From a virus, in the IMG/VR virus record IMGVR_UViG_3300021472_000001, positions 7,923 through 71,922 of that record: DNA of 64,000 bases. One strand, given 5' to 3'. The first letter of the stretch is position 1. Each line of letters starts with the position of its first letter. The notes beneath the pieces are model-generated. The model was not told the origin of the DNA. It searched no databases and saw only the letters and a list, made by a program, of their open reading frames with translations. A program made the position numbers and the translations under genes. Shown piece by piece: positions 2,755 to 50,448 of the stretch.

Positions 2755-2846
2755 TGCACATATTTAGCACAGAACAAAACTTTTCATTTCGGATATATTT
2801 ATATAGGCTTGAACAGAAAAATTTGCACTACGCTTATTTATGTGCA
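2755..2846. repeat. Dispersed symmetric 92-93 bp element, copy A
   Basis: TGCACATA (2755) ... TATGTGCA (2839-2846) with inner AAA(C/T)TT boxes; intergenic. Confidence 0.85.
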
Positions 2847-2881
2847 TCTCATGAGAAATTTTCAATGTTTCATTGAACATA

Positions 2882-3115
2882 TCAGACTTGTCTAACACGA
2901 ATCCCGTGAATAGACTTTAAAGCTTCTACTCGAGACTTCACCATTTCCTCATTATCTCCGACTACACGAACCCAAATACAGTCCAAACGATCTCGTCGGT
3001 CTGCCAGTGTGTCCTTCCCGTCAAACCAGCTATCTATACTTAGAAGATAGAAGAGTCGAATCTTGCTAATCAGATCCGCAACATTAGCATAAAACTTTAT
3101 CATGCTATCCATCAT
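2882..3115 (-). CDS. Hypothetical protein
   Basis: 77-aa ORF co-oriented with its neighbours. Confidence 0.5.
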   Translation of the reverse strand: MMDSMIKFYANVADLISKIRLFYLLSIDSWFDGKDTLADRRDRLDCIWVRVVGDNEEMVKSRVEALKSIHGIRVRQV

Positions 3116-3318
3116 AAAGAGAGAAGGTCGAGTTTTTCATGTAATTCTTCGGGAGTTAATTCGCCATGCTTTCTTTGAAACTCTTCTACCTTCTTGGGAA
3201 GTTCTGGATCTGACCAAATCTCGTCCAGAGTCTTTTCTATTTCCCTTATCTTCTTCATCCTTTGGGATGCCATATCTTCTTTCATTTCAATCTCCCTCCT
3301 TCTTAGAAAGACAATTTC

Positions 3319-4560
3319 TTAAAATCCTATCCTCTCTATCACAGAAGGTTCTCTTCCCAGTTTCGTCTGTGCAACTAAGGGCTTGAGTCTCTGATATGCT
3401 ATCTCACAATATTCTTTGTTCAAGTCTATTTGAATGCTATTGAAACCCATTTGTTCAGCAACAACTCCGACTGTCCCTGTTCCTGCGAAAATATCCATTA
3501 CAACTCCACTATCGTATCCAGCGTTACAATCATATCCCTTCCAGCCCAAAAAACGTTTAGCTGTTAGCCATCCCTTTTCTGGAACCTCTTGCATCACTAC
3601 TCCCATGTCTTCTCTTGGTTTCTTATTACGCTTATTCTCACGAGGCTCTAATTGGATAGTCTCAAACTCCTTTATTTTCGGTCTTCCACACTTCCTACAA
3701 ACGTATCGAGGACATCCAGCGAGAAGACAAGAAGACACAAGGCGAGTCGGGAACGCAGCGTAATGAGGTAAAGAAGAAGGCTCAAGATTAATGAACCACA
3801 CGTTAGGACGATTAGCACCAGTCAATTCCCCTTGATTAACTCGCTCTGCGAAGTGCTGTGCTCCCGTGTGTTTAACGGCTCCTTGAACATCTCCCTTCGT
3901 TGGATTGTAAGCGTGCTTAACTCGTTCTTTTGTTGCTGCTTTGAGAGGAGTTCTAATTGCATCTTGGTCCCAGTAATACCGAGGACTCTTTGTTAAAACA
4001 TAAACGGGTTCGTAAGAAAAGGAACATCTATCTTTCGCAGATGTTGGCATACTTGAGCCAATAGTTGAATTAGTCTTAGAAATCCACAACCTCTTCGTCC
4101 AAATTACACGATCCCTGAGAATAAATCCTAACTCGTCTATACATCTAATAATAAATCTTTCGTTTTGAAGAGCCATGCATTTAGATTTTACGCCTTCCTT
4201 TGTAATGTCAGCATAAAATTCAGCGGCACTCTTGCCTTTATATCTTAATTTATGCCCTTTGGGATAGTGTTCTGATTTGTGTCCTGTTCCCGTTCCACCA
4301 TAACAATCTCCATGGTTCCAAAATATAACTCCCGTCTTTTTCAGAATTCGCTTCAATTCTCTCATTACATCTAATAAATGCTCAATATATAAATCCAGCG
4401 TAGGTTCCAATCCTATCTCCTTAGCTTTATCTGGGTGATCATCAGGCAAATACGAGCGCAGAGACCAGTAGGGAGGTGAGGTAATAACTGTATCCACACT
4501 TTCGTCAGGCAACTTCTTTAGGACATCCAACACATGCCCACAAATTATCGTATGCTTCAT
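3319..4560 (-). CDS. DNA methyltransferase, probably N4-cytosine, with a Zn-ribbon-like insert
   Basis: TSPPY motif, HYAAFP, DIFAGTGT; CRKC insert. Confidence 0.92.
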   Translation of the reverse strand: MKHTIICGHVLDVLKKLPDESVDTVITSPPYWSLRSYLPDDHPDKAKEIGLEPTLDLYIEHLLDVMRELKRILKKTGVIFWNHGDCYGGTGTGHKSEHYPKGHKLRYKGKSAAEFYADITKEGVKSKCMALQNERFIIRCIDELGFILRDRVIWTKRLWISKTNSTIGSSMPTSAKDRCSFSYEPVYVLTKSPRYYWDQDAIRTPLKAATKERVKHAYNPTKGDVQGAVKHTGAQHFAERVNQGELTGANRPNVWFINLEPSSLPHYAAFPTRLVSSCLLAGCPRYVCRKCGRPKIKEFETIQLEPRENKRNKKPREDMGVVMQEVPEKGWLTAKRFLGWKGYDCNAGYDSGVVMDIFAGTGTVGVVAEQMGFNSIQIDLNKEYCEIAYQRLKPLVAQTKLGREPSVIERIGF

Positions 4561-4660
4561 TTCTGTTCGGGAATCTTGATAAAGTAAAGGCTATAACAAA
4601 ATGGACAATAAAAATAGCCACACTCCAATCTTACTAATTCCGAACCACAAACTGGACACT

Positions 4661-5512
4661 CTAACATTTGTGCTTTCTCCACTTACATAATTTAGGAATG
4701 CAATATCCCTGTTTCCTAATAGTGCCACATGACGGGATTTTATAATTTTTGTTCCGTATCTGGTTAATTTGATACGCTGTCATCTCCTCATCCCAGTCTT
4801 CCCAGCAATAACTCTTTGCCTCCTCAATCATCTCTGTATCACTCTTGCCCTGAGCTATTCTTAGTGCTGCCCACCCAAACCTTATGAACTGTGATGGATG
4901 TCTTTCCCTAATGAAATATTCAATGCAAGGACGATAGAGTTCTTGAGGAATATCTTGAGGAATAGAATGAAACACGTGAATCTCTTCTCCATTAAGCAAA
5001 TCAAACGGATTCACAAACTTGGTTATTTTCTGTTTTATGATTCTTACTCGGCGATTCAATTCTGGATAATAACTCCCTGGAAGACGTGCCAAGCCATTAA
5101 CTATACCATCGGTGATATCGTCATAATGCTCAATGCCAACAGAATCTATAACATAATCAGAAATGCATCGAAATGCATTAGAATCCATTGCAACAGGTGA
5201 AAGATGAATATAAAAATGATAACCTCTTTTTGGTTCTGCTATGGTAAAAGAGAGATTATGATATTTAGCAAAATCCTCAAGTTTCGTTATCTCCCGTTCT
5301 GCTGTATTCTTTTTGCAATCGAAATCATAAAAGAGATACAAGGGGAATGCTCGCCTATCTTGAAACATACTGATGCTTCCATATAGAGGCTCTTTTTTCA
5401 TTAGATATTTCGTGATTTCAGAAGACGAATAGACTGGGAATTGTTTGAGGTCTGCTTTTGCTATCCTACGATAATAGCCGTGAGGAGTGTAATAGAACAA
5501 TCCGTAATTCAT
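4661..5512 (-). CDS. Archaeo-eukaryotic primase: PriS-like catalytic domain fused to a PriL C-terminal Fe-S-like domain
   Basis: FYDFD, RGYHFY and RLPGS AEP motifs; C-terminal RPCI...PSC...C...C pattern as in the PriL C-terminal domain. Confidence 0.85.
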   Translation of the reverse strand: MNYGLFYYTPHGYYRRIAKADLKQFPVYSSSEITKYLMKKEPLYGSISMFQDRRAFPLYLFYDFDCKKNTAEREITKLEDFAKYHNLSFTIAEPKRGYHFYIHLSPVAMDSNAFRCISDYVIDSVGIEHYDDITDGIVNGLARLPGSYYPELNRRVRIIKQKITKFVNPFDLLNGEEIHVFHSIPQDIPQELYRPCIEYFIRERHPSQFIRFGWAALRIAQGKSDTEMIEEAKSYCWEDWDEEMTAYQINQIRNKNYKIPSCGTIRKQGYCIPKLCKWRKHKC

Positions 5513-5524: not shown

Positions 5525-6187
5525 TCATATTCCGCCCTTTACAACGAATGTTCCTAAATTATCAGCGACATCCTCAGCTGAGTCTAAGACCTGTTCTAAT
5601 CTTTCAAGTATCTCTAAAAGAAGTAATCGCTCACCTTCGTCTCTGAAGTCTCGTCTGACTAAACGAAGAAGCCAGTCTCTGTATAGCTCATCACCTCTAT
5701 GTTCGCAATAATTGATACCTTCAATACGCTTCTCAAGTTCCTCTTGATTTTTCACGACATCAGAAAGGAGGACAACCGAAGTATAAATATCTAAGATAGT
5801 CAATTCAAAAACGGGCACAAACTCATTCTTCATCAATAAAGCGAGAGAATTCGGCTCTATATTCGCTATCCTCCATGCAGAGCCCTCTACATTATCAATG
5901 ATGTTATCGAGATTGTGTAAGAACACTTGAATGTCTCCTTTTTCTTCCGTTACTCTTGTGTGATCGCAGAGAAGTGTTACATTTAAATCATGAATTTTCT
6001 TGTCTGCTTCTTCTTCTAACACCTTAATCCTCTCCGCTGTTTTTAGTGGATGTTCATCCTCTCCTAAACGCTTCAAAGCGTCTATACTCTTCTCGATTAT
6101 TACAACTAAATCTTGAATTGATTGAAGATACATTTCTGTTCTTCTCGGCACGAAATACTTTGTGAATGAAAACACTCTCTTTAGCAT
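5525..6187 (-). CDS. DUF47 / PhoU-like phosphate transport regulator
   Basis: Two helical repeats, LEEEAD...LDNIIDNVE and EHRGD...LEQVLDSAEDVAD. Confidence 0.88.
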   Translation of the reverse strand: MLKRVFSFTKYFVPRRTEMYLQSIQDLVVIIEKSIDALKRLGEDEHPLKTAERIKVLEEEADKKIHDLNVTLLCDHTRVTEEKGDIQVFLHNLDNIIDNVEGSAWRIANIEPNSLALLMKNEFVPVFELTILDIYTSVVLLSDVVKNQEELEKRIEGINYCEHRGDELYRDWLLRLVRRDFRDEGERLLLLEILERLEQVLDSAEDVADNLGTFVVKGGI

Positions 6188-6981
6188 TTAATTTCTCTCA
6201 CCTCTCCCGGATTTATAAATAACTTTCCTTTCTTCACCTCTTCCTTTAATCTTTTCAATCCTAATTTATAATAAGCCAAATCTTTCTCTATTGCTATTGA
6301 GTTCCTTCCAAGAGACTCTGCTACTACGCTCGTGGTAAACATTCCCGCAAACGGGTCTAATACTATATCGCCGGGAAAGCTCCAATACTCCATAAGTTCT
6401 CTTATCACTTTGCGAGGCTTGAGAGTAGGGTGGTTATACCTTCTTCGTTCGTCTCCAGTAGAAGGTGTAGCAAAAATATAATCTGGATGCTCTTTAAGAG
6501 ACTTATTAAAATGATGTTTGTTTCCTTTCTGACGAGTTGCGATTATAAAGCACATCGATGCGTTACACCAAACGTTACTTCTAAACATTGGGAGATAAGA
6601 AGGAGAAATCCAGACTCCTATATTACGAATATGACTTCCTTCTTTCTCTATCACCTGCATTGTCTGCTCAGCTAACCGCTTACCCGTAAATGTTATGAGG
6701 ACACCACTTCGTTCCTTCAATATCGGTAAAGCGAGAGGAATCCAATCCTCTGGGAATATTTCATTCTTATCCCATTGACCAAAATCTAATGAATACTTCC
6801 GATTGTCCATATTGAGAGTTGTTTCTTGAGAAATGTTAAAGGGTGGATCGGTTAGAATCAAATCTACGAAGTCCTTAGGCAATAAAGAAAGTATTTTACG
6901 ACAATCTCCGTGAATGACATAATGTCTGATTTTATCTTTTGGGAATTCCAGCTCTATCATCTTCCTCATAAAAGAAATCAT
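6181..6981 (-). CDS. DNA amino-methyltransferase (beta class)
   Basis: TDPPF, HPTLKP, LDPFAG. Confidence 0.92.
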   Translation of the reverse strand: MISFMRKMIELEFPKDKIRHYVIHGDCRKILSLLPKDFVDLILTDPPFNISQETTLNMDNRKYSLDFGQWDKNEIFPEDWIPLALPILKERSGVLITFTGKRLAEQTMQVIEKEGSHIRNIGVWISPSYLPMFRSNVWCNASMCFIIATRQKGNKHHFNKSLKEHPDYIFATPSTGDERRRYNHPTLKPRKVIRELMEYWSFPGDIVLDPFAGMFTTSVVAESLGRNSIAIEKDLAYYKLGLKRLKEEVKKGKLFINPGEVREIKC

Positions 6982-11364: not shown

Positions 11365-11367
11365 AGC

Positions 11368-12622: not shown

Positions 12623-12780
12623 TTCTTTCTCCCAATTTTTAAATCCTTAACTTGGCAACCAAAATTTCTCCCTCCAATATTATCCTTGCACATTAGGAGT
12701 TGTGGAGTGTGGGAGTTGTCTTGGTTCGTTCTTATCATAACAGAAATATGCCTAAGACCCATCATAGATTTCTCACCATT

Positions 12781-12873
12781 TGCACATATCCTTTGCTCAC
12801 GCAAATTTCATCACCAACCTAATATTCCTCTATTCCTCAAGTATAAAATTTAGTTATATCGCATCTATGTTGA
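12781..12873. repeat. Dispersed symmetric 92-93 bp element, copy D
   Basis: TGCACATA ... TATGTTGA, with inner AAATTT boxes at the same offsets as the other copies. Confidence 0.8.
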
Positions 12874-12886
12874 TCTGGTGCAAAAT

Positions 12887-13383
12887 CTACATGAAGTTCT
12901 TGATAATATCTTCGGACGAATAGAAGGTTAGTATTCCAATCGCCGTTTCGTAGGTTTCATTTTTCCTTTCGTCATGAAAAATAATTGCTCCCTTTGTAGG
13001 AGCAGTTCGTAATTCGCCATCCGTAAGAGGGACAATCTCTGTTGTTACTTTCTTGAGCCTATTATACAAGCATTCATTATAGATGGAATGAATTTCAAAT
13101 TTAAAAATGTTCTTTTTCTCTCCCTCTTCGTATGCAGCGTGAATTTCCCTAATAGGAAAGATAAAGAAGGAAGTCTCTAAACTAAGAATCAATGAGGCGT
13201 TAATGCTTCTTATGGAATATGAAGGGGGAATGCAATCAGAAGGTCAAGAACTTGACGGTAATAAACTGAATATAAAAACTTCTTCGAGAAAGGAAGATAA
13301 TAGTTGTCCCACATTTCGAGATTAGAAGAGTTCTGTTGGAAAAAGAATTCAAAAGATGGAGTAGCAAAGAACACTATTCCCAT
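12887..13383 (-). pseudogene. Array paralogue 1, split by a -1 frameshift near 13210-13245
   Basis: ATG 13383 gives MGIVFFATPSFEFFF...YLPFSKKFL, which matches the N-terminus of 13385..13867. The C-terminal family motif lies in the -1 frame (track ORF 12887..13192). Confidence 0.75.
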
Positions 13384-17914: not shown

Positions 17915-18184
17915 TCATTCATCCTTTACCTTTATGACTTTCCAGCCATTCAATCTCGCCTCATCCAAGAAATCAATTAGCGTCTTTTCTATATTTCCTG
18001 TAACTACAAAACCGAGATGAAAATTATCGTAATATCCTTCTCCGTCTGAGTATTTCTTAAATTCAATTTTGCCTTCGAGCTGAACATTCCTATATTTATC
18101 CAATGCTTTAAGGACCTCTCCAACTTTATATGTTTCCGTTCCAATTCTTACTCCATTCTTTATCAATTCTATATCCTCGGTCAT
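17915..18184 (-). CDS. Member 1 of a three-member small-protein family
   Basis: Start moved to ATG 18184 (AGGAGG upstream); similar to 25610..25858 and 26093..26358. Confidence 0.75.
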   Translation of the reverse strand: MTEDIELIKNGVRIGTETYKVGEVLKALDKYRNVQLEGKIEFKKYSDGEGYYDNFHLGFVVTGNIEKTLIDFLDEARLNGWKVIKVKDE

Positions 18185-18203
18185 TATACACTTTCCTCCT
18201 ATT

Positions 18204-18295
18204 TGCACATATTTGCGATATAACAAAATTTCTATATCTCCGAATAGTTTTTACCACTTTAAGGATAAAATTTGCGTGAGCCTCATCTATGTGCA
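18204..18295. repeat. Dispersed symmetric 92-93 bp element, copy B
   Basis: TGCACATA...AAAATTT...AAAATTT...TATGTGCA; right flank TCTCATGGGAAAT is nearly identical to that of copy A. Confidence 0.85.
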
Positions 18296-18297: not shown

Positions 18298-18504
18298 TCA
18301 TGGGAAATCACGATGAGGTCGAGGACTGATTTTCTGAATCCCCAAGAAGTTGGGTGGAGAGGAATTCCACTCATCCATAAGTAATGCGCCAATGATTATG
18401 AACAGCATTCCTAAGAACAATTGAAATTCTGAATCATGCTCTACCACGCAAAGAACTGTTCCCCAAGCTATTAAAATTCGTCCTATACACTGAAGGAATG
18501 TCAT
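18298..18504 (-). CDS. Small membrane protein
   Basis: Two hydrophobic segments. Confidence 0.5.
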   Translation of the reverse strand: MTFLQCIGRILIAWGTVLCVVEHDSEFQLFLGMLFIIIGALLMDEWNSSPPNFLGIQKISPRPHRDFP

Positions 18505-20784: not shown

Positions 20785-20903
20785 TTCTATTCTTTCCTTC
20801 CTTTTCCCTGAGTTCTTGATTATATCGAAGCCATTGATAGAATATAAACTCTTGTGTCTCTTCCCAGTCCTTTCTTCTTAGTCTCATTTCTTCTTTTTTC
20901 TTC

Positions 20904-21023
20904 TTTATTATAATAATATTATTAATATAATTTAATTAATAAAGGATCCTACGTATTTTATACGTATAATATACGTTATGATCCCGATAGGAGAACTTTA
21001 TACTTTAAAGTAAAGCTTCTCCT
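20904..21023. promoter_or_regulatory. 40-bp A/T-only tract followed by two imperfect palindromes (origin or operator candidate)
   Basis: 20904-20943 contains only A/T; palindromes at 20944-20984 and 20989-21023. Confidence 0.5.
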
Positions 21024-21048
21024 TAAACACGATAGGAATAATCTTGTG

Positions 21049-25595: not shown

Positions 25596-25609
25596 TTAAT
25601 GTTCAGTGT

Positions 25610-28548: not shown

Positions 28549-28799
28549 TTAACCCTATATTTTAACCTATTTAAATACCTTTGCTTCATAACTAAATAGA
28601 TTTCAATTGCATAAAGAATTCCACCCAATAAATCCCCACATTTGTGCATTTTCTTATTTGGTGATAAGGCGATCGAGGGATAAACACACCTATTCTTATC
28701 GCTCACGAGGGAAGGTCATAAGCATTAACACCAAACCCGTGTGAATTCATACCAAATTCGTATCACCAATTCATATCGCCCTCATCCCTTATGTCGCCT

Positions 28800-29641: not shown

Positions 29642-29673
29642 TCATGAAAACTTGGCATTAGCACACACCCACA

Positions 29674-29694
29674 GGGGGAGGGGAGGGTATCCCC
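29674..29694 (+). other. G-tract at the end of the heptamer array (possible terminus, packaging or origin signal)
   Basis: GGGGGAGGGGAGGGTATCCCC in an otherwise G-poor strand. Confidence 0.35.
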
Positions 29695-30011
29695 GCTATA
29701 TGTGTATCAAGTCGGGCGAAACATCGGACGACAACGCGGAACTCCCACGAGAAGGCTCGAATAAAATGCTCCGGGCAAGTTTCTCAGATCGGGACTGAAC
29801 GCTCACTCCGTTCGGGCATCCTCTGCAGAGATTGAGCAGAACTCCTCTTAAAATCCTCCGTTTTCGAGACACTCTTTCACATTTACTGTAATCGCCTTAT
29901 CGGAACAGAGCCTTCTCCTACCTTCATTTTGCCCTTCCTCCATTTTAAAAGTATATCGCTTTTGTTCCTCCATATGTATAGATAGAGGAAGTAAAATTAC
30001 TAATTAATATT

Positions 30012-30035
30012 AGGACTAAAGTCCTTTAGTTATAA
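30012..30035 (+). promoter_or_regulatory. Putative late-operon promoter: inverted repeat plus TATA box
   Basis: AGGACT-AA-AGTCCT followed by TTATAA about 25 bp before the first + strand gene. Confidence 0.45.
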
Positions 30036-30060
30036 GCTAAGATCGATAGGAAGAATAAAA

Positions 30061-31850: not shown

Positions 31851-32344
31851 AAGAGAAACACAAAGTTCAGATATTGATTGACAGAGCTACTAAAAGCAGA
31901 TTAATAGAAGCAAAGAATGCGCTTCGTAAGACTTGGGACGATTTCTTTCTCTACTTGTTAGAATTCTATATTGCTCATTCTGATGAGGACGATAGAGAAT
32001 TAGAAAAGGCTGAGGCTATTCGGTATTGTTTGACTGATGCAGATACATCCACTCTCGCATATCACAGAGAGCAACTCACTAAGATTCTCACTGATTTAGA
32101 AAGAACTGTTGCACAAACTGAAGACCCAAAAGATAAAGCTGTGATAGCAGAGAAGATTGCCAGAATAAATACGTCTCTTAAAGACATTGCTGAAACTGAT
32201 GCAGGAAGCAGGCTTCTTGAGGAAATAGGACGATTAAAGAAGAACCGTTTAAAAATATTAAAGAATATAGCACCAACTAAAACTGTGAAAGTTCATGAAG
32301 ATAAAGAAAAGGTATCGAAAGCTGAGGACGAGAGGGGACATTAA
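31847..32344 (+). CDS. Putative terminase small subunit / DNA-binding protein
   Basis: RHH-like N-terminus, helical; directly upstream of the large terminase. Confidence 0.55.
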   Translation: MKEKHKVQILIDRATKSRLIEAKNALRKTWDDFFLYLLEFYIAHSDEDDRELEKAEAIRYCLTDADTSTLAYHREQLTKILTDLERTVAQTEDPKDKAVIAEKIARINTSLKDIAETDAGSRLLEEIGRLKKNRLKILKNIAPTKTVKVHEDKEKVSKAEDERGH

Positions 32345-33920
32345 GATTGAGGTCATTTGCGATTATTGTGGCAAGAAATTTGAGATACCAGAAAAGAATT
32401 ACTTTGAGAAACTAAGAAAAGGCTCAAGATATTTCTTTTGTTGCTCAAAGTGCCTATCCCGAGCTCGTGCAGAAAACCTCTTCTCGAAGAACCCTCCTAC
32501 GAATATTCCTGACGAACTCAAGAAGCCAAAAGAAATAGAGGTTTCACTCTTACCAGAGGATATGCGCGGGCGTTGTTACTACTGTGCAAGGAAAATACCT
32601 AAATCGAAAATATTCTGTGAAAAACACGCAACTGAAGAGCATCTTGCAATATTTGAAGCGACTCAAGAGCTTCCTCTTCACCCACGAGGTTGGTGGTCAT
32701 ACGAGATTATTAAGGACTGGCTCGGAGGCGAGAAGAAAATACTTCTTCGTGGACCAGCTGGAATGGGAAAGTCAATTCTCGAAGATATTATTGCCTACAT
32801 GAACCTTACATTGTTTGACAATTCCTTCACTCTTATAGGTTCTATTTCAATGCCCATTGCGGTGCAACACATAGATAGAATACGACAGTGGGTTAATAAC
32901 TCTCCCTTTCGCTCTCTTATAGTTTATGACAGTAAAGAGCAAATTAAGCTCAAGACAGGTTCACGAGTATTAGCAATAGCACAAAACGAAAAGACACGTG
33001 GTGGTTATCATCCAGATCTTGTTTTGTTAGATGAGCTCGCTCGTATACGACCTTCTGCTTATTACGGATTATTTTATCAGATGGGGAAATCGAAAGGTGC
33101 AACTGAAATAGGTGTCTCAACCCCATTTGGAGCCTCGGGCGTCTTTATGTCACTATGGTATTCAGGAACAGCAAGAACTCACTCAGTAAAGCTCGAAGAC
33201 TGTTGGTTTATCACTTCTCAAATGATAGAAGACGCAAAGAAAGCTATGTCTCCCTCATATTTTGACCAAGTGTTCAAAGCTGAATTCGTTGCAAACTCCA
33301 ATAGGGTCATACCAGATGAGCAACTCCTAAATGCAATTACCGATAGCAGGTCGAGCTCGAAAAAAGACCTCATTATGGGATTAGACTTCGGACGAAAAAG
33401 AGACCATACTGCACTGGTTATACTTGACCAGCGAGGTAATGTGATATACACAGAAATACTTCCACTTAATATTAGTTGGAGAGAACAATACAGCATAATT
33501 CGTGATAGGGTGAGAAAGTTTGACCCGATTACGATATATGCAGACCAAACAGCAATAGGAGACCCGATATTAGAGGAGTTGTCAGACCTTCCTATCGAGC
33601 CTGTATTAATGTCTAATGACAGACTAAAGAAAAAGGTTATTGATAATTTAGTTTTAAGTTTTGCTTATAACTCTATACGTATTCCTAAAGACGAGCAAGA
33701 GTTGATAGACCAACTCAGTGCTTTTGTTTATTTGGATGATAAGATGATGAAGTGTGGTCCCGAAGGTGGAGCACATGATGACCTCGTAGATGCACTCGCT
33801 CTTGCTTCTTTAGGACTTGAACGACATGTGGAATATGAAGAACATACGGATATTTGGGGAGCGGTTGGTGGAGAAAAGCCGCTCGATACAGAAGAAAGTC
33901 CGTGGCGTATTGTGTGGTAG
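32295..33920 (+). CDS. terL: Terminase large subunit with N-terminal Zn fingers
   Basis: GPAGMGKS, LLDE, VSTP, GLDFGRKRDHTA, HDDLVDALALA. Confidence 0.93.
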   Translation: MKIKKRYRKLRTRGDIKIEVICDYCGKKFEIPEKNYFEKLRKGSRYFFCCSKCLSRARAENLFSKNPPTNIPDELKKPKEIEVSLLPEDMRGRCYYCARKIPKSKIFCEKHATEEHLAIFEATQELPLHPRGWWSYEIIKDWLGGEKKILLRGPAGMGKSILEDIIAYMNLTLFDNSFTLIGSISMPIAVQHIDRIRQWVNNSPFRSLIVYDSKEQIKLKTGSRVLAIAQNEKTRGGYHPDLVLLDELARIRPSAYYGLFYQMGKSKGATEIGVSTPFGASGVFMSLWYSGTARTHSVKLEDCWFITSQMIEDAKKAMSPSYFDQVFKAEFVANSNRVIPDEQLLNAITDSRSSSKKDLIMGLDFGRKRDHTALVILDQRGNVIYTEILPLNISWREQYSIIRDRVRKFDPITIYADQTAIGDPILEELSDLPIEPVLMSNDRLKKKVIDNLVLSFAYNSIRIPKDEQELIDQLSAFVYLDDKMMKCGPEGGAHDDLVDALALASLGLERHVEYEEHTDIWGAVGGEKPLDTEESPWRIVW

Positions 33921-36201: not shown

Positions 36202-38628
36202 ATGTCCTTAAAGATAACATTTCTTGGAGTTAATGCAGAAGAAAAAGGACATTCGTGTATATTAGTTGAGTCTCGGAACACGAGAGTCCTACTTGAACCC
36301 ACTCAGCGAGTCCCTAATATAGATGCGGTTATTATAACGGATATAGACAAGGATGAATATAGCGAGTGGAAATATTATGCCGAGCAAGATATTCCAATTT
36401 ATTCAGTAGCTGCTATTAAGCGATGGGCTGAAGACATTGAATTGCGAGACCACATTAATGTCATAGGTCATAAGTTCTCAGTAAAAGACTTGCGCTTTTT
36501 ATGGCTCAAGGCGAATGTAGCTCCTCATGAACCAGCGGGTGGGGTGCGAATTCCAGCTTATGATGTTGATATCGTTCCTGAGCTTCCAAGTTACATTCCA
36601 CAAGCATTGATAAAGGCGTTTGGACTGCCACCATCGCATATCATAGTCGGAATAGGCTCCTATAAGAAGGCAGACCATAAAATTTCATTTGAAGATTTTC
36701 TTGCTCAACTCGAAAGAGCTCGAAGTGGCAAAGAGAAGGGGCTCTTATCCATCACATTAACGAACTTCAGAAAAGACTTAAAAGAACATAAGAATGAAGT
36801 CCTTAGACGATTGAAAGAACGGTGGGATGTTCCTATCTTTTGGGCAGAGAAGGGCATGACTCTCGAATTCTCAAAGAATGGACAGGTTGAAAGGATAGAT
36901 GGCTCTTCTTCCAGTGAATTAGAGAAGCTTCATCTCAAGGAATTCCTCTCAAAAGGAATAGACTATGATATTAAGCACGTTAAGACGAGATGGAAGGAAT
37001 GCATTGCAGATTTAAGATACTTAGCTAATAGTGCTGTTCCCCGCTTAAAAGCAGGAAAGAAGTGGGGTGAATGGACTCTTGACGCTTGTTATAAATATTT
37101 TGCAGCTTTAGTAGACGCTCTACGCAGTGTATACTTCGCACTTGTTCCCCCAACTCAACCGAAGTTATATAAGTTAGAGCATCCATATAAAGATCCTAAA
37201 GAAGCACTCAAGACTTCCTTTTGGCAAACATATCTTCAAGCTAAGAAGTATATGAAGTCCAACCCTCCTAAAGATGAAAAGGAACTAAAAGAGTGGAACA
37301 AGAAGCGAGCAAAAATAATAAGCGCATCTGAAGAAAAGAAGAATATGAAAGTCGGATACCTCAGTAAGGCAAAACCGTATTTACGATTCTTCCTCCCAAC
37401 TGTTCATGAAGATATTGAGAGTGTTGGATGGGACGAAAAAGAGCTTCTTCTTGACGTAAAAGCTGATGGCTTGCGCATTACGCTATGGAAATCCAATGGG
37501 AAAGGATACGTATTCGTAGATCCAGAAGAGCTTAAGCATAAATCACCGTTAATTAATAAATACATTCCCCAGATAGTGAGAGAAATTGAGCAAATCCTTC
37601 CAAATAATACCGCTTTGGATGGTGAATTGTATGCAGCCAAAGGCAAAGAGGCTCTGCATAGAACTGTCATTAATGGAATCATAAATACAAAACTTCCTCC
37701 CGAAAAGTTTACTCCTTATGCCTATGCATTTGCGTTTGATGTCCTCATTTTTAAAGGAAGTGATGTAAGAGACAAACCTCTCGAAGAAAGGCTAAAATTA
37801 CTTCAAACGCTGAAATCCTCTTCTCATGTTAAAATAGAAAAGCCCTCTAAAGTCGTAGTACCGGGTCATTCGGGATATGTGGTTAAAGGAAATAATAAGA
37901 GCGCAATAGACAAAGCCATTCACCTAATAGAAACTTCAAAACATAATTTGCATAAGGGTGTTCAAGAAGGCATCATGATTAAGACACTAGACCATCCGTA
38001 TGAGCATCCAACGAATCATGGTTGGGCAAAATGCAAATTATGGCATGAGGTTGATACTGTTGTGCTGGACAAAAAATTAGTAAAAGGTCAAACGGATGTG
38101 TGGAATTATCATTTAGGAATCGAGATACCAGCCGAGTATGCCAAGATGATGCTCGATGATACGAATGCTTATAAACGAGTGCGATGTTTATACGAAGGTC
38201 ATTTATATAAAAAGAAGGAATGTCAAGATTATTTAGACAGAAAAGGTGTTCGATTCTTCATGGAATACGGAAAATCTGATAACACGAAGATTAAATGTGA
38301 TACTGGAGATGTTCTCCGAGTATCGTCAGAGGAAGTCCTGTATAACGAGAATGAAACTCATCCAGAATTCCCCTTCTATACTGGGTATATAAACAGAGCG
38401 ATGGAAGCAGTACCTGAACGGAAAACCTCAGATAGCTTAGTAGTGTTACATCGTCTTGCCATGCTTGAGCCTAAACGGATTCCATTAGAAGTATTAGCGA
38501 AATGGAAGGAAGGAATTCCTTCTGAAGCTGCTAAATATGCAGAATATATTAAGTCTCTTTCTACTTCAAGACTTATCCAATTTTATAATGCATTAAGAAA
38601 AGTTCAAAGCGAAAATGGGACCAATTAA
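36202..38628 (+). CDS. Degenerate metallo-beta-lactamase-fold domain fused to an ATP-dependent polynucleotide ligase
   Basis: Ligase motifs I KADG, III LDGEL, IIIa FDVL, IV EGIMIK, V WAKCK; N-terminal ITFLG...SCILVE...DAVIIT. Confidence 0.88.
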   Translation: MSLKITFLGVNAEEKGHSCILVESRNTRVLLEPTQRVPNIDAVIITDIDKDEYSEWKYYAEQDIPIYSVAAIKRWAEDIELRDHINVIGHKFSVKDLRFLWLKANVAPHEPAGGVRIPAYDVDIVPELPSYIPQALIKAFGLPPSHIIVGIGSYKKADHKISFEDFLAQLERARSGKEKGLLSITLTNFRKDLKEHKNEVLRRLKERWDVPIFWAEKGMTLEFSKNGQVERIDGSSSSELEKLHLKEFLSKGIDYDIKHVKTRWKECIADLRYLANSAVPRLKAGKKWGEWTLDACYKYFAALVDALRSVYFALVPPTQPKLYKLEHPYKDPKEALKTSFWQTYLQAKKYMKSNPPKDEKELKEWNKKRAKIISASEEKKNMKVGYLSKAKPYLRFFLPTVHEDIESVGWDEKELLLDVKADGLRITLWKSNGKGYVFVDPEELKHKSPLINKYIPQIVREIEQILPNNTALDGELYAAKGKEALHRTVINGIINTKLPPEKFTPYAYAFAFDVLIFKGSDVRDKPLEERLKLLQTLKSSSHVKIEKPSKVVVPGHSGYVVKGNNKSAIDKAIHLIETSKHNLHKGVQEGIMIKTLDHPYEHPTNHGWAKCKLWHEVDTVVLDKKLVKGQTDVWNYHLGIEIPAEYAKMMLDDTNAYKRVRCLYEGHLYKKKECQDYLDRKGVRFFMEYGKSDNTKIKCDTGDVLRVSSEEVLYNENETHPEFPFYTGYINRAMEAVPERKTSDSLVVLHRLAMLEPKRIPLEVLAKWKEGIPSEAAKYAEYIKSLSTSRLIQFYNALRKVQSENGTN

Positions 38629-41600
38629 TGTTCACAACTTAGAAATATTGAAGGAGTTAGCAGAGTCTGAACTCAATTATCGTCATGCTAAGACTCTTCA
38701 TATCCCTAATAGGGGAATGTATTTACCCGTTCCTCACGCCAAATTGATATTCAATAAACACAAGACGGTTATTCTTAAGGATAGAAAATTTAACATCACT
38801 GGCATTCCTTTCCTATATTGTGATTCAACCTATGCGTATGGTGTATTAGAGCTTGGTAAGCCAAAAGAGATTAAAAACGAAGGACAGTTCAAAGCAACAC
38901 AAAAATATCATAGAGTGACTGAAGCGGAATTTAAGAAGTGGCACTGGGATTTCCCACTCTACGCGTATCCTGTAAAGGAGGTGCGTAACTTTAAAGAGCC
39001 TATAAGAATTAACCTCCCCACGGGTGTGCAGAATTTCTTTAGGAATCCAATAGGGTATTTAGAGACTGGTGAATATCCATTTACAGCAAAGCACAGTCTC
39101 AACTTGCCGTATCCCATAGAAGTGGCTTGTTCAAATTGTGGAAATTGGATTTACGTTCCTCACACACCTTTGCCTTCTCAGTGTCCTCATTGTGGTGCTA
39201 CTCTTGTAGAAACAGAAGAAACAAAATCCCGTATGATTCCTCTTCCTAAAGAAGAATACGAACGAATATATAAAGACTATCCCAATAGACCTCTTCCGAA
39301 GAAATACTATAAAGACCAAAGAGGAGGAGTTGCTTGGTGCTTGTCCTCTCCAAAGACCAAAATACTGACTAAAGAAGGCTGGAAACCTTGGTACGCAGTT
39401 CAAGTTGGTGATGAAGTCATCACGCATCGTGGAAGATACAAAAAGGTAACACGAAAAGATGTATTCGAGAATGTGCTTAAGTGGGTAAAAGTTGAGTTCC
39501 AATTTGATGGCGTCGAGAAACTCAAATATAGCACGAGAGTTACTGAAAATCATCCCTTCCTAACGAAAGAGGGTTGGAAGGAAGCTAAAGACCTTAAAGT
39601 TGGTGATAAAGTCCTCTCGAAGACTCCAAAACGATGCCTCAATTGTGGAGCACCTATTCCTCATTCTTGGATGGAGAAAGTGGATTTCCTCTTTTGTAGC
39701 GATAAGTGTTTCCGAGAATATGAATGGACGGAAGAAAGCTTAGACACCTCTTATATTGATAAGAAAGTATATGATAATCCATTCGTTGATATCTATGTAA
39801 CGGTTACTAAAGTAGAGCCGATTGTATTCCCAAAGGATAAATTTTATTTGTCCACGCGTGCTTACTCAATAGAAGTTGAAGATGATCATTCCTACATGAT
39901 ACCTTTAGCGTTCTCTCACAATTCTCAATGGCACATAAGAGGCATTAAGCCAGAAGACAAGGAGGCTTATGACAAGGGAAAGATATCCTTTGAAGAAATG
40001 ATTCTTCATCACAGCCTTCATCAAGATTTGAGATGGACGTTGAATGGAGTTTCTGTCCTTCCTCAATGCACTATTACAGAAAGCGATATGGAATCGTATG
40101 TAAGAGGTATGCTTGGACAACTTAATCCAGAGCAAAAGGGTCCCGCTAATGTTCAAAAAGTCAAGGTTATTCCTAAAGTTGAGATTGCTAAGCCTACAAT
40201 GCCGAAGTCAAAAATGAAGGAGTTCCTTATAGACGAAAAGGGAGCTAAGCTTATTAATAAGATAATAATTCACGAGACCTCTTACTGGATTTCCCCTGGG
40301 GAAGTGGGATGCGTTTCAGCAAATACTCTCGTCTTAACAGATCACGGATACGAATACATAAAACATCTTCAGCCGGGAGATTTGGTTTATACTCACAAAG
40401 GACGATTTAAGCGAGTGCTTCGTGTTATTAGGAAAGAAAAACAGAACTGGTGTTATAAACTCTCGCCTTATAAAGGTTTCCCAGTAAACTTTACGAATCA
40501 CAAAATATTCATCAACGAAAACGAACTTAAGGATATTGCTTCATTTACTCGAGATGATAGATTATACCTCGCAAAGCCAGAAATTGAAGAAATTGCGCCT
40601 AATGATTTGGAGCTGGAGATCCCTCCTGGATATGAAAAGAGGGTTAAATGGGATGAAGATTTAGCAAAATGGATAGGCTATTTTGTAGGAGATGGTTCAA
40701 TTGAGAATGTTGATAAAGGAGCTATAAGCTTCTCTTGTGCATCGAGAAGCGAAGCAGAGAAATATGCAAAATTGTCAAGAAAACTATTTGGAGCTGATGT
40801 TCATATTTATCCAAGACGAAATCATCACAAACCAAAAACAGATAGTTATATCTCCTACTGGGATGTTGAGTTCAAAGATAGAGGATTGGCGAGATGGCTA
40901 AGTGCAAATTGTTATTATCATCCAGAGTGGAAGAAAGAGCGACACAAATTTAAGATATTTCCCCGTGAAGCTATATATCATCCGTTGCGATTGCTTAGAA
41001 AATATATTGATGGTTTTAAAGAAGCTGATGGCTGGGATACAGAACATTCAGCTTACATAGGGAACTCTTCTCGATACGCTATCGGTCAAGCATTCTTTAT
41101 GTTGCTACGATTAGGTAAAGAACCAAACATTCGCATTAGCAGTCGTCCAAAAACTACTCAATACTATACTCTTTCATGGATTGAAAACAGACAAACGCAC
41201 AAGAAAGGAACTCCTTCAGAACATGGTTATTCTCTACCTATTAGAGCATTTGAAAGGAAAAACAATGCAACTATTACTCAGTATGATCTTACAGTAGAGG
41301 ATGACCATTCATACACAGTATCCAACTTTCATATTTCAAATTCTCTTCCCTACACTTGGGCTTATATGGGAACTATATGGACGGGAAGAGTAGAGACTGC
41401 GACGGAGAGAGGAGATTATCATGAGCTCTTCTTTTATCCTGATAAAGACTTACCAGAGCCCAATAAGAAGTTCTTTGACGGACGATTCATATTAAGAGCC
41501 TTCAAAGGTGAAGCAGCACGAGGAGGCAAGACATGGTGGATGTGGAAGTCCACAAAGAATCCGTATCCACAAAATCCCTGGTGCTATTGTGATCAAGGTG

Positions 41601-41686
41601 AACATGAGATTCTTCCTCTTGATAAAATAAAGCATTGGGGTCATGAAGATTATCCTGAATGGAAAACAAGAAAAGATGAATGCTAA
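38615..41686 (+). CDS. ASCH/PUA-like + Zn ribbon + LigD-type phosphoesterase-like domain, interrupted by two inteins (about 484 aa after splicing)
   Basis: PHAKLIF..KT...AYG ASCH pattern; CSNC/CPHC; extein motifs QWH...HQDLR, PGEVG-S...IWTG, DGRFILR. Confidence 0.72.
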   Translation: MGPINVHNLEILKELAESELNYRHAKTLHIPNRGMYLPVPHAKLIFNKHKTVILKDRKFNITGIPFLYCDSTYAYGVLELGKPKEIKNEGQFKATQKYHRVTEAEFKKWHWDFPLYAYPVKEVRNFKEPIRINLPTGVQNFFRNPIGYLETGEYPFTAKHSLNLPYPIEVACSNCGNWIYVPHTPLPSQCPHCGATLVETEETKSRMIPLPKEEYERIYKDYPNRPLPKKYYKDQRGGVAWCLSSPKTKILTKEGWKPWYAVQVGDEVITHRGRYKKVTRKDVFENVLKWVKVEFQFDGVEKLKYSTRVTENHPFLTKEGWKEAKDLKVGDKVLSKTPKRCLNCGAPIPHSWMEKVDFLFCSDKCFREYEWTEESLDTSYIDKKVYDNPFVDIYVTVTKVEPIVFPKDKFYLSTRAYSIEVEDDHSYMIPLAFSHNSQWHIRGIKPEDKEAYDKGKISFEEMILHHSLHQDLRWTLNGVSVLPQCTITESDMESYVRGMLGQLNPEQKGPANVQKVKVIPKVEIAKPTMPKSKMKEFLIDEKGAKLINKIIIHETSYWISPGEVGCVSANTLVLTDHGYEYIKHLQPGDLVYTHKGRFKRVLRVIRKEKQNWCYKLSPYKGFPVNFTNHKIFINENELKDIASFTRDDRLYLAKPEIEEIAPNDLELEIPPGYEKRVKWDEDLAKWIGYFVGDGSIENVDKGAISFSCASRSEAEKYAKLSRKLFGADVHIYPRRNHHKPKTDSYISYWDVEFKDRGLARWLSANCYYHPEWKKERHKFKIFPREAIYHPLRLLRKYIDGFKEADGWDTEHSAYIGNSSRYAIGQAFFMLLRLGKEPNIRISSRPKTTQYYTLSWIENRQTHKKGTPSEHGYSLPIRAFERKNNATITQYDLTVEDDHSYTVSNFHISNSLPYTWAYMGTIWTGRVETATERGDYHELFFYPDKDLPEPNKKFFDGRFILRAFKGEAARGGKTWWMWKSTKNPYPQNPWCYCDQGEHEILPLDKIKHWGHEDYPEWKTRKDEC
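39338..39922 (+). mobile_element. Mini-intein (195 aa) with an internal Zn finger
   Basis: CLSSPKTKILT ... VTENHPF ... YSIEVEDDHSY...SHN|S. Confidence 0.9.
40310..41341 (+). mobile_element. Intein (344 aa) with LAGLIDADG homing endonuclease
   Basis: CVSANTLVLT ... IGYFVGDG ... IDGFKEADG ... YDLTVEDDHSY...ISN|S. Confidence 0.92.
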
Positions 41687-49422: not shown

Positions 49423-49449
49423 TTATACGATAAGCCTTTAGGAAGAAGG

Positions 49450-49704
49450 ATGGACGAGATGCGAGAGTTATACATTGGTGATAAACCTTATGATAATTAT
49501 TTAAGAGCTTTGGGAGATTCTCAGAGCGTAAGTATTCTTGCAAGAGGTAAAAACGTCAAGAAGGCAGTGGATGTAGCATTAATGGCACAGCGACTGAGCC
49601 AATTTACCATAAATGCTGTCTCGATATACGATGAGAAGATGACAAGCGAAGATGGTGAACGTGAATATTATGTCAGTGCGATACGTATAGACTTGACGCG
49701 TTAA
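49450..49704 (+). CDS. alba: Alba chromatin/RNA-binding protein
   Basis: YIGDKP..NY, ILARGKNV.KAVDVA, VSAIRI.L. Confidence 0.9.
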   Translation: MDEMRELYIGDKPYDNYLRALGDSQSVSILARGKNVKKAVDVALMAQRLSQFTINAVSIYDEKMTSEDGEREYYVSAIRIDLTR

Positions 49705-49734
49705 TTATATAAATAAATAAGAGGAAAGAGAGAT

Positions 49735-50316
49735 ATGGCAACACAAGAGGAAGAGTTTGAGGAATTCTTTAAAGAGTTAGAGGAAGAGACGACGGAGAAC
49801 ACTGAAGAGCAGAAGTCGGGGGAGCAGAAGGATGAAGAGGAAAAGGCTCTTACAAAAGAGGACGTCATTAAGATTGTAAGAGATGAACTGAAGACCTTCT
49901 GGCAGGGTGTTCTTTCGGGTAAGTATCCCTTACCAAAGGTAGCGAAGTATCCGTATGCTAAGTATCCTTACGCTGTGTATCCTTACGCAAAGTATCCTGC
50001 TCCGGGTGCACAAAAGAGTATAGAAGCAGATGAAGTCCCCGTAATGCCATTCTTTGTTGTGCCACAAATGGTGGATACAACCTCTGCACCTGCTCAGACT
50101 GATAACACAAAGTCCAATGAAAAAGACAAGGTAATAGAAGAGCAGAAGTCCCAGATAGAGGAACTGAAGAAGACTGTTGATGAACTCCAGAAGAAGTTGG
50201 AGGAGTTAAGCGCACAGCCTGCTCCAGAGGAAACCAAGACTGATTCAAATGATACGAAGACGGTCAATTACGTTTCTGACGTTGTGATAGAAGGCGATAC
50301 AATATCTCGACCTTAG
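49735..50316 (+). CDS. Capsid scaffolding protein
   Basis: Acidic coiled coil located between the protease and capsid genes. Confidence 0.7.
   Translation: MATQEEEFEEFFKELEEETTENTEEQKSGEQKDEEEKALTKEDVIKIVRDELKTFWQGVLSGKYPLPKVAKYPYAKYPYAVYPYAKYPAPGAQKSIEADEVPVMPFFVVPQMVDTTSAPAQTDNTKSNEKDKVIEEQKSQIEELKKTVDELQKKLEELSAQPAPEETKTDSNDTKTVNYVSDVVIEGDTISRP
49921..50000 (+). repeat. Coding 15-bp tandem repeat (AKYPY)n
   Basis: KYPLPKVAKYPYAKYPYAVYPYAKYPA. Confidence 0.8.
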
Positions 50317-50355
50317 ATAATACCTCTATGACCTAACCTAAATTTTTTTACTATT

Positions 50356-50448
50356 TGCACATATTTGAGGCTGAGCAAAATTTTATCGTTAGGCATGATA
50401 AATTATACCTACCCGATACAAAATTCTCTTAAAACTCAAATATGTGCA
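50356..50448. repeat. Dispersed symmetric 92-93 bp element, copy C
   Basis: Perfect 14-bp inverted repeat TGCACATATTTGAG / CTCAAATATGTGCA, extendable to 20 of 22 bp. Confidence 0.85.

Follow-up and report, generated by a model that had tools for sequence, protein, structure and literature searches.

Halovirus HF2 and other haloferacalesviruses carry intergenic repeats of two classes, namely class I of 58 bp and class II of 29 bp (Russ, Pfeiffer, Dyall-Smith 2021, PMC8707807). In the portions of that report drawn on here, all nine tested repeats of HF2 were promoters, some of which fire both ways, the start sites lay within a conserved motif, and long counter-transcripts exist (PMC8707807). 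The element described in this study, a mirror-symmetric (dyad) cassette of 92-93 bp sited between gene blocks, resembles the HF2 repeats, as those portions portray them, in its archaeal-type tailed virus context, its dispersed and exclusively intergenic copies, and the conservation of its position among relatives. Both also bear conserved blocks beyond BRE/TATA (in HF2 including the start-site region), and one half of the element plus its flank spans about 58 bp, the size given there for a class I repeat. On the other hand, the HF2 repeats are described there as single and oriented, whereas the element is an obligate inverted pair with a spacing held to +/-1 bp and a common AT-rich centre, with putative promoter activity. 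The HF2 motifs TCTTTAAGTC and CGTCTNNTAGAG had 8 and 5 one-mismatch matches against 9.4 and 3.6 expected, none of them within elements, and sequence kinship with the HF2 alpha/beta/gamma motifs was rejected as the matches were only at chance level. By this comparison, we regard the HF2 repeats as the closest tested analogue of the element, not as a family to which it belongs.

Shared-TATA bidirectional promoters of Thermococcus kodakarensis have divergent starts predominantly 52 bp apart (bioRxiv 10.1101/2020.01.31.928960, Warman et al.). Like the element, they are symmetric around one AT-rich box, and in the element the bases just outside the two AAATTT boxes, where putative starts would lie, are 51-52 bp apart. 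In the part of that work drawn on here they are common promoters of the host and carry no other conserved boxes, whereas the element recurs as a single unit and is most strongly conserved outside the putative shared TATA box.

T4-type phages have promoter-early stem-loop (PeSL) repeats and lambdoid phages have boundary/linker sequences; both are promoter-containing intergenic repeats flanking variable small-gene cassettes, with bacterial sigma-70 promoters and a stem-loop. The element is likewise repeated, intergenic and flanked by variable small-gene cassettes, with putative promoter content, but it has no conserved stem-loop and an archaeal-type context. In mycobacteriophages L5 and Bxb1, the phage repressor binds stoperators, each of them a single asymmetric site about 13 bp long whose orientation follows transcription. 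Many dispersed copies in short intergenic regions of both arms, together with putative protein binding and control, liken the element to stoperators, from which it differs in being symmetric and about 120 bp long and in that no repressor was identified among the Pfam-scanned ORFs.

The whole stretch of DNA analysed (hereafter the window) is 64 kb long and corresponds to positions 7,923 to 71,922 of the 71,922-bp record IMGVR_UViG_3300021472_000001. The record holds seven copies of the element in total, five in the window (one of them degenerate) and two outside it. The copies and their flanking features are given below in window coordinates unless the record is named.

Record positions 2362-2454: extra copy outside the window
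Record positions 5934-6026: extra copy outside the window
2735-2754, minus strand: leader of copy A with the ATG (2735-2737) of the methylase-like gene 2027-2737, 17 nt past the left edge of copy A
2755-2846: copy A, 92 bp, between minus-strand genes; left AAATTT box degenerate (AAACTT), central box strongly TATA-like
12763-12780, minus strand: leader of copy B, GGTGAG (Shine-Dalgarno-like) and the ATG of a small downstream gene
12781-12873: copy B, 93 bp; right outer box TCAACATA
18182-18203, minus strand: leader of copy C, AGGAGG and the ATG (18182-18184) of the downstream gene
18204-18295: copy C, 92 bp; both halves near consensus, right edge 2 nt from the stop codon (18298-18300) of the upstream minus-strand ORF
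27077-27171: copy D, degenerate; both AAATTT boxes kept, 37 bp apart, left outer box with a 2-bp deletion, right outer box matching at 4 of 8 positions
50343-50349, plus strand: seven consecutive T, lying after the stop of gene 49735-50316 and before copy E
50356-50448: copy E, 93 bp, the only copy within the plus-strand arm, upstream of a 134-aa gene and the capsid gene; 14-bp perfect outer arms, right AAATTT box with one mismatch
50449-50498, plus strand: leader of copy E, 47 nt, with GAGGTAGG and the ATG (50496) of the downstream gene

All five copies in the window were relocated where the initial annotation had placed them, the fourth at about 27077-27171. The AAATTT-like box that it noticed in all ten half-sites is exact in eight and carries one mismatch in the remaining two, and the TGCACATA box is exact in seven, differs by two mismatches in one half of copy B, and is degenerate in both halves of the 27-kb copy. 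We also confirmed the weaker symmetry reported about 14 bp past each end of the element, and the whole dyad including these flanks amounts to about 120 bp. Besides TGCACATA and AAATTT, a CTYRAG-like block and an outer flank box are conserved. Measured from the dyad, the boxes are centred at about +/-21 and +/-42 bp, or roughly two and four helical turns, so judging from these coordinates they would fall on one face of the helix. The central cores had been taken as unrelated to each other, which does not hold: all copies have a common AT-rich central box, and orthologous cores are conserved. Paralogous copies are about 57-68% identical (52% for shuffles), and an inverted-repeat search found copy B to be similar to the reverse complement of copy C in the arms and the centre.

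The pattern TGCACATA-N14-AAATTT with up to two mismatches matched the window nine times, against 0.98 +/- 1.08 matches (maximum 5) in 100 dinucleotide shuffles. Eight of the nine are halves of four copies, and the ninth (33515-33542, inside the terminase gene) looks like a chance match. In an independent repeat search, the half-sites ranked with the longest repeat families, both direct and inverted. A half-site matrix of 46 columns was built from 12 halves, of which 11 scored 13.8-44.5 and one scored 6.3 when each element was left out in turn. Scanning for inverted pairs at any spacing of 60-130 bp, we found four pairs in G001 and three in G002, two independent relatives of about 80 kb each, and none in 100 shuffles of each genome; the half-site geometry proposed at the outset thus recurs in relatives and not in shuffled DNA. 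With the spacing left free, all the pairs of G000 (6), G001 (4) and G002 (3) were 92-93 bp long, as were 41 further pairs, for which the search pattern had fixed the AAATTT spacing. Every copy was paired, and the matrix detected no solitary half-site in the three complete genomes.

Approximately 48 distinct copies were found in viral and metagenome contigs. Among 185,579 GTDB species genomes of prokaryotes, the pattern had 29 matches, none of which was a real element, and these searches support the element being confined to this virus lineage. The element is restricted to intergenic DNA and its position is conserved among related viruses: G000, G001 and G002 are collinear, and five of the seven positions of the record are kept in both G001 and G002 with a flank identity of about 70%. 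Within an orthologue group the cores all point the same way, with no core inversion among orthologues.

The conclusion of the initial annotation that geometry rather than hairpin pairing is conserved was borne out, as RNAalifold returned no pairs on 44 copies and only one of the five copies folded far below shuffles. The arms do pair poorly in general, but the well-pairing copy is the fifth (50356, z = -6.4) and not the third (z = -0.5) as had been claimed; the DNA-fold z-scores of the three remaining window copies were -2.4, +0.07 and +0.95. A structured RNA was rejected on this lack of a conserved fold and on the absence of Rfam matches at the gathering score. A MITE or another transposon was also rejected because the flanks are symmetric and not direct repeats, no target-site duplication was seen, the copies are only 57-68% identical, and none of the GTDB matches was real. 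The remark that the window shows no recombinase or transposase agrees with the Pfam scans run, which detected neither.

The virus is a tailed virus that probably infects archaea, an assignment to archaea that derives from gene content. The best solved relatives of its PolB are archaeal family-B polymerases, the sole PDB match of a recombinase-like protein is an archaeal RadA, and one ORF is Alba-like with an E of 4.5e-5, just under the Pfam cut-off. Bacterial-type signals did not exceed the level of shuffled sequence: sigma-70-like sites numbered 47 against 47.1, and hairpin terminators 13 against 11.4. Atlas searches returned matches labelled only 'Viruses' or mixed taxa.

In the record, all seven copies lie between genes of the same direction, in seven of about 25 gaps of at least 50 bp. 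A clearly divergent gene pair flanked none of the 48 distinct copies, several short flanks being ambiguous. The usual layout is an upstream stop codon, a T-run, the element, a ribosome-binding site and an ATG, with 4-47 nt from the downstream edge to the ATG. In 44 of the 48 copies, 4-73 nt separate that edge from the first ATG of the frame beyond it; this ATG usually follows GGTG, GGAGG or GAGG, and a Shine-Dalgarno match of at least 5 nt precedes 41 of the 94 genes of the record, compared with about 10% of random sites. The antisense-facing sides contain only ORFs of 31 aa or less and head no gene, yet the antisense-facing half is conserved as well as the sense-facing half, whichever way the genes run. 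With same-direction genes on both sides and a stop codon, T-run, Shine-Dalgarno sequence and ATG at its edges, the placement fits transcription control at operon boundaries.

Altogether, we propose, with a probability of roughly 55%, that the element is a dyad-symmetric operon-boundary cassette with archaeal-type promoters facing both ways, probably also bound by a regulator. AT-rich boxes of the TBP/TFB type would keep a constant distance to pyrimidine/purine initiator positions. From one face, transcription would enter the downstream genes, which begin directly afterwards with a ribosome-binding site and an ATG; from the opposite face, it would run antisense into the upstream block at its 3' end. 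Incoming transcription is probably halted in part by the T-runs, which occur both at the edges and within the AAATTT boxes. A dedicated regulator encoded by the virus or the host may bind the whole unit and set its timing; such a regulator is suggested by the TGCACATA and outer flank boxes, the obligate pairing and the +/-1-bp spacing.

The geometry of an archaeal core promoter, an AT-rich 8-mer centred about 26-27 bp ahead of a pyrimidine/purine start position, is found in the element in more than one register, as a matter of geometry alone, and only one face of the element has a gene at a sensible leader distance. We tentatively favour the register in which the AAATTT box is the TATA box and fires outward. 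ATAAAATT would then occupy -30 to -23, and C(-1)/A(+1) the end of TATGTGCA, a step conserved at 77-90% in the 30 halves of 15 non-redundant copies. This register fails at the G001/G002 orthologue of the copy at record positions 2362-2454, whose ATG is situated 7 nt inside the outer box. It also sits awkwardly with copy E, whose orthologues in G001 and G002 have lost the gene-facing AAATTT box and kept the upstream half and the centre. Possibly, the AAATTT box instead serves as BRE/TATA and fires inward across the centre. Slightly less likely still is the central AT box as one shared TATA box with starts just outside both AAATTT boxes; the bases there are 51-52 bp apart, the spacing given for the shared-TATA promoters of T. 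kodakarensis, and the central box is about 25-27 bp from each of them.

Several features sit uneasily with the promoter cassette. Two independent back-to-back promoters need neither obligate pairing nor a fixed length of 92-93 bp, the cores having diverged, and the antisense-facing half is equally conserved despite heading no gene. The most conserved boxes (AAATTT and TGCACATA) are not typical TATA sequences, and the centre is the most TATA-like but the least position-specific part. These same features, namely the pairing at a fixed length, the equal conservation of both halves regardless of gene direction, and boxes in excess of core-promoter needs (TGCACATA, the outer flank box and the CTYRAG-like block), favour a platform on which a multimer of a sequence-specific DNA-binding protein, from the virus or the host, would contact four to six boxes on one face of about 120 bp of dsDNA and wrap or bend it, any promoter being ordinary and secondary. 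The platform protein would act as a repressor, activator, roadblock, insulator or chromatin-positioning factor at operon boundaries. The apparent phasing of the boxes by helical turns is consistent with this, and the authors of the HF2 study, in the portions drawn on here, likewise propose regulators binding their repeats (PMC8707807). On the other hand, a weak Alba-like match was the only DNA-binding domain recognised by Pfam among the 46 + 29 ORFs scanned, and the wHTH label given to the protein at 27571 in the initial annotation found no support, the protein having no Pfam match, no PDB relative and an unusable predicted fold (pLDDT 42). The tight link of the element to stop codons, T-runs, Shine-Dalgarno sequences and ATGs also favours transcription over a purely architectural role. 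We consider a platform alone unlikely, although platform and promoter are not mutually exclusive. Of the protein-multimer site originally suggested, the multi-box dsDNA site with obligate pairing and +/-1-bp spacing was retained, while its recombination/resolution, nick and packaging roles gained no support.

A more speculative and also unlikely extension is that the 120-bp dyad docks an unrecognised multimer encoded by the virus, or a host chromatin multimer, making each operon boundary a switchable two-way unit and a joint for cassette exchange. If so, the multimer would wrap the DNA, touching TGCACATA, AAATTT and the flank boxes along a single face of the helix, and the element would be an insulator/terminator when bound and a bidirectional promoter when free, or the reverse. 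Such a unit would govern the timing of middle and late genes across a lineage of uncultivated archaeal tailed viruses.

We see it as improbable that the copies are primarily linker sequences at module boundaries, maintained or exploited for swapping cassettes by homologous recombination between co-infecting relatives. G001 and G002 lack copy A together with the two small ORFs next to it, the first gene past copy C varies among relatives, and 15 of 30 distinct breakpoints (indels or replacements of at least 100 bp in comparisons of the record with contigs of 78% or more identity) fall within 300 bp of an element, against 7.0 +/- 2.2 expected (P about 0.0004) under a null uniform within the same contig spans. 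This null takes no account of the fact that gene junctions and small accessory genes are where indels are mainly tolerated. The breakpoints are also partly non-independent, and the contigs were found via the elements. The 57-68% identity of paralogous copies leaves exact common stretches that are short for homologous recombination, and cassette turnover beside promoters is expected anyway.

Still less probable are two-way terminators/insulators without promoter activity. An ATTTT/ATTTC run separates the upstream stop from the element, the AAATTT(T) boxes are palindromic and thus give T-runs on both strands, and the 13 hairpin terminators against 11.4 in shuffles of the plus-strand arm, no enrichment, fit termination of the T-run type. 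The 7-T run before copy E may well terminate the upstream unit in archaeal fashion, but the runs at the equivalent place in other copies are shorter, mostly of only 3-4 T. Terminators would also leave TGCACATA, the strict spacing and the abutting Shine-Dalgarno/ATG unexplained and the downstream blocks without promoters.

Site-specific recombination or inversion, programmed nick, packaging or replication-initiation sites are highly improbable, as only the dyad symmetry and dispersed copies speak for them, and against them stand the absence of a recombinase, transposase or Orc1/Cdc6 among the proteins scanned, collinear genomes with no flipped cores among orthologues, symmetric flanks with no target-site duplications, and the implausibility of a 72-kb genome with seven origins or pac sites. 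Archaeal replication origins have inverted origin-recognition boxes around an unwinding element and occur at one or a few loci, beside an initiator gene; the seven dispersed copies were rejected as such origins. A far better origin candidate, judging from its repeats, is the non-coding inter-arm region at 28800-29620, where 22 RTGTTAY repeats lie on the same strand within 820 bp.

The element was detected in the window at 2755-2846 (copy A), 12781-12873 (copy B), 18204-18295 (copy C), approximately 27077-27171 (copy D) and 50356-50448 (copy E), which are the five sites named in the initial annotation, and two further copies were found in the record outside the window (record positions 2362-2454 and 5934-6026). 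Copy D, though degenerate, is a genuine member. Read inward, the half-site is tttYnCAYsAka-TGCACATA-N14-AAATTT, and two half-sites inverted around a central core span 92 or 93 bp between their outer ends. When two or fewer mismatches were allowed, the half-site pattern matched the window at nine sites (0.98 ± 1.08 expected), eight of which lay in four of the copies, and the half-sites were among the top families in a repeat search of the window. A matrix was built from 12 halves; 11 of the 12 halves scored at least 13.8 when left out, and the remaining one scored 6.3. The same matrix found two matches of 12 or higher in 29 unrelated bacterial loci (~226 kb by our own sum). No true solitary half-site was found, as the candidates scoring 10-27 were degenerate pairs or unrelated chance DNA. 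A degenerate element similar to copy D was present in a terminase-related contig (L020:5031-5125), with AAATTT boxes 37 bp apart and poor outer boxes.

Related contigs were gathered by terminase and capsid searches and by pattern scans. Two complete genomes of ~80 kb, G001 and G002, are collinear with the record and share ~70-75% DNA identity with it. Scanning them with the matrix yielded four and three inverted pairs, respectively, all of 92-93 bp although 60-130 bp was allowed, while 100 shuffles of each genome yielded none. Five of the seven element positions are syntenic in these relatives, which lack copy A and the small ORFs beside it and have no region homologous to that of copy D. In the first scan of viral sequences, seven of nine stretches were true orthologues and two were chance matches. 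The loci L076-L166 contributed 41 pairs, 37 of 93 bp and four of 92 bp, but here the distance between the AAATTT boxes was already set by the pattern used for the search. Altogether, 76 pairs were collected from all loci, representing 48 distinct sequences. A 19-base pattern matched 29 stretches in 185,579 species genomes, a number close to our rough estimate of chance expectation, and none of the 29 carried the AAATTT boxes. Thus, the element is specific to this viral lineage and not a host repeat, and a host MITE or host operator was rejected on the same ground. We found no description of the element in the literature searched, and a text search with TGCACATA returned only unrelated primer or sequence entries among the matches listed. 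The element is a real, lineage-wide and highly stereotyped cis-element.

The anatomy of the element was deduced from 44 copies, aligned in the direction of their neighbouring genes, and from position statistics. The boxes form a mosaic that is symmetric about the dyad.

Boxes of the element, from the flank to the centre
Flank box: upstream side, ATTTT/ATTTC ... CAYsAGA; downstream side, read outward, AAT-GGTG/GGAGG-..AAAT
Outer box: TGCACATA, inside the flank box
Arm: recurring types, e.g., GCGATATAAC or GAGGCTCACGC
Inner box: A.GC-AAATTT(T)
CTYRAG-like block: next inward from the AAATTT box
AT-rich centre: AATATAAww.TAT-like

As this mosaic, including the AT-rich centre, is common to the copies, the central cores are not unrelated to each other, contrary to the initial annotation, and copy B is close to the reverse complement of copy C. 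The identity between paralogous copies was 57-68%, compared with 52% for shuffled sequences. The earlier view that geometry rather than hairpin pairing is conserved was borne out, except that the copy that pairs well is copy E and not copy C: hairpin potential was strong in copy E alone (z = -6.4, versus -2.4, +0.07, -0.5 and +0.95 in the others). With one of five copies folding strongly and no shared structure recovered by RNAalifold, a conserved hairpin or cruciform was rejected. Neither an Rfam family nor a tRNA was found. No clear polarity emerged, since pairwise identities in the same and flipped orientations did not differ clearly and the conservation of upstream versus downstream halves was mixed across orthologue groups, with no consistent asymmetry.

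All seven copies in the record lie between genes of the same direction and occupy seven of the ~25 gaps of at least 50 bp. Where the upstream stop codon was located, it lay 2-70 nt from the edge of the element and was followed by a short T-run (seven T at copy E). On the downstream side in the record, an SD-like motif and an ATG occur within 4-47 nt. In 44 of the 48 distinct copies, the first ATG was found beyond the edge at a distance of 4-73 nt; among the other four, L097 and L169 look like frame-choice artefacts of our script, the copy at 18755 of G002 is ambiguous, and at locus L083, a copy of the G001 type, the outer box itself contains the ATG, 7 nt inward. On the sides that face antisense there are only ORFs of 31 aa or shorter, which were not conserved in the one orthologue compared. 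The heads of the two gene arms, which flank a non-coding region of ~1.5 kb, have no element.

The window covers bases 7923-71922 of a viral record of 71,922 bp. The final 100 bases of this record reappear from approximately position 28, a sign of either terminal redundancy or circular assembly, and we therefore regard the genome as complete or nearly so. The minus strand carries the genes up to ~29 kb and the plus strand those from ~30 kb onward, with a switch in GC skew at that point.

Genes assigned in the two arms (window coordinates)
Plus arm: large terminase, portal, weak HK97-type capsid match, tape measure, glycosyltransferases and a radical-SAM protein
Plus arm: ORF with a DNA-ligase domain
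32295-33920, plus strand: the large terminase, with an N-terminal TRASH/YHS-like (TRASH/zinc-ribbon-like) metal-binding segment (weak Pfam matches)
38615-41686, plus strand: ORF of 1023 aa, containing two insertions that resemble inteins (Pfam Hint/PT-HINT, Intein_splicing and LAGLIDADG_3) and, in addition, zinc-ribbon-like matches
49450-49701, plus strand: Alba-like ORF of 84 aa (PF01918, E = 4.5e-5, 23.6 bits, below the Pfam cut-off of 25)
Minus arm: family-B DNA polymerase, ERCC4 nuclease, RadA/KaiC-like ATPase, RadC, and an AAA plus VWA/DUF2201 pair
2027-2737, 3319-4560 and 6181-6981, all minus strand, replication arm: three separate N6/N4 DNA methylase genes

Among proteins of solved structure, archaeal PolBs are the best relatives of the polymerase, and the sole PDB match of the recombinase-like protein is an archaeal RadA. 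The nearest named relatives of the terminase belong to Thermus, Meiothermus and Tunturiibacter phages (24-27% identity); no described phage is close, as there was neither a near DNA match in the phage collection nor a match to the capsid, and two Atlas searches for the host gave only viruses or a mixture of taxa. Sites of sigma-70 type were no more frequent than in shuffled sequences, and the same holds for hairpin terminators. From the gene content and these counts, an archaeal host is likely. As a pure speculation, the short palindromes within the element boxes (TGCA, AATT) are conceivable methylation targets for the N6/N4 methylases.

Outside a few haloviruses, next to nothing is known of how archaeal tailed viruses programme their transcription, and the lineage studied here is represented by metagenomes only. 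We consider that the element is most likely a promoter-bearing cassette at operon boundaries, because of its placement, its AT-rich boxes at ~21-bp steps and the precedent of the halovirus HF2. Of the intergenic repeats of HF2, the nine that were assayed were all reported to be promoters; their start sites fall within a conserved motif, and mutating this motif abolished activity. Some of the repeats fire in both directions, ~70% of the genome is transcribed from both strands, and the binding of a regulator to the repeats was proposed by the authors (PMC8707807). The present element would be a variant of the kind demonstrated by experiment in HF2.

Three layouts of the start sites, registers 1-3, all fit the element as judged from its boxes. 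In register 1, the AAATTT box would serve as a TATA box firing outward, with ATAAAATT at -30 to -23, C(-1)/A(+1) at the end of TATGTGCA and the SD at +5 to +10. The conserved half in its entirety (~58 bp) would then have the size of a pre-initiation complex, and nearly leaderless genes would follow record copy 2362 and copy D. Two observations count against this register: the ATG of the G001-type copy falls inside the box, and the orthologues of copy E in G001 and G002 have lost the gene-facing AAATTT box. In register 2, the central AT box would act as one shared TATA, and transcription would begin immediately outside each AAATTT box; the two starts would be separated by 51-52 bp, which is the rule reported for T. 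kodakarensis (bioRxiv 10.1101/2020.01.31.928960). Such a layout would account for the fixed length and suit every ATG position; its drawback is that the strongest conservation would fall at -6 to -1 and +15 to +22, and the initiator positions are weakly conserved. In register 3, the AAATTT box would be a BRE/TATA firing inward with the centre as the melting region, and the outer-side A.GC-AAA looks BRE-like against the CGAAA consensus given in the same preprint (bioRxiv 10.1101/2020.01.31.928960). Register 3 could explain why the upstream halves are kept in the orthologues of copy E, yet it would create face-to-face promoters. A bacterial promoter (TTGCAC, 17 bp, AAATTT) was weighed for its 17-bp spacing and rejected as the main reading, because the second hexamer matches at 2/6 positions, the genes are of archaeal type and sigma-70-like sites are not enriched.

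The obligate pairing of half-sites, the spacing kept to ±1 bp over diverged cores, the equal conservation of the gene-less face and the placement of the boxes on one helix face exceed the needs of two independent promoters. Thus, the two halves are likely to be joined by a bridging regulator or to share one central element. The same features would suit a platform for a multimeric, sequence-specific DNA-binding protein, an idea partly contained in the promoter reading; as the principal explanation we deem it unlikely, and no candidate binder emerged among the proteins examined by Pfam, PDB and structure modelling. The protein encoded at 27571-28548, suggested in the initial annotation as a wHTH binder, had neither a Pfam match nor a PDB relative, and its single-sequence AlphaFold model was unusable (pLDDT 42). 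Alba, another protein suggested there, is weakly supported by the ORF at 49450-49701, ~650 bp upstream of copy E, as the PF01918 match falls just under the cut-off. Should there be a dedicated binding protein, the element provides the bait with which to look for it; should the element be no more than two promoters of the host type, it would be a neat if unremarkable counterpart of the intergenic repeats of HF2. Being compact and highly stereotyped, with seven copies per genome, ~48 variants and a geometry fixed to one base pair, the element makes testable the two-way firing of archaeal promoters, the timing of gene blocks by a virus without its own polymerase, and a possible role of repeated control cassettes as joints for the exchange of gene cassettes.

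As to the last of these, 15 of the 30 distinct breakpoints of at least 100 bp between the record and its closer relatives lay within 300 bp of an element, compared with 7.0 ± 2.2 expected under a crude null model. Small-gene cassettes beside the elements vary among relatives (e.g., 2847-3318, 17915-18203 and 12874-13340), and copy A is present or absent together with its small neighbours, two ORFs absent in both G001 and G002. The pattern fits operon boundaries being places of accessory-gene turnover, and the repeats may act as linkers for cassette exchange, subject to the crudeness of that null model. Readings of the element as a recombination site, nick site, packaging site, origin, MITE or RNA were not supported.

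A much better candidate for an origin or early control region than the elements is the non-coding stretch between the gene arms (28550-30060, ~1.5 kb). The motif RTGTTAY matched the window 63 times (28 ± 4.8 expected), and 22 of these matches, all on the plus strand, fall in the 820 bp of 28800-29620, which contain no convincing ORF and show a strong C/T skew. This part resembles an iteron array, which makes it a candidate for the replication origin or for early control. Elsewhere in the window, the gaps at 25553-25609 and 25859-25944 share a different motif, a T-run followed by CCCATATAGC and then CGCC, which may represent a second class of control sequence. The 264-bp gap at 20785-21048 contains an extremely AT-rich stretch and short repeats of the ACGTAT type; possible roles for this gap are strong promoter activity, DNA bending and unwinding.
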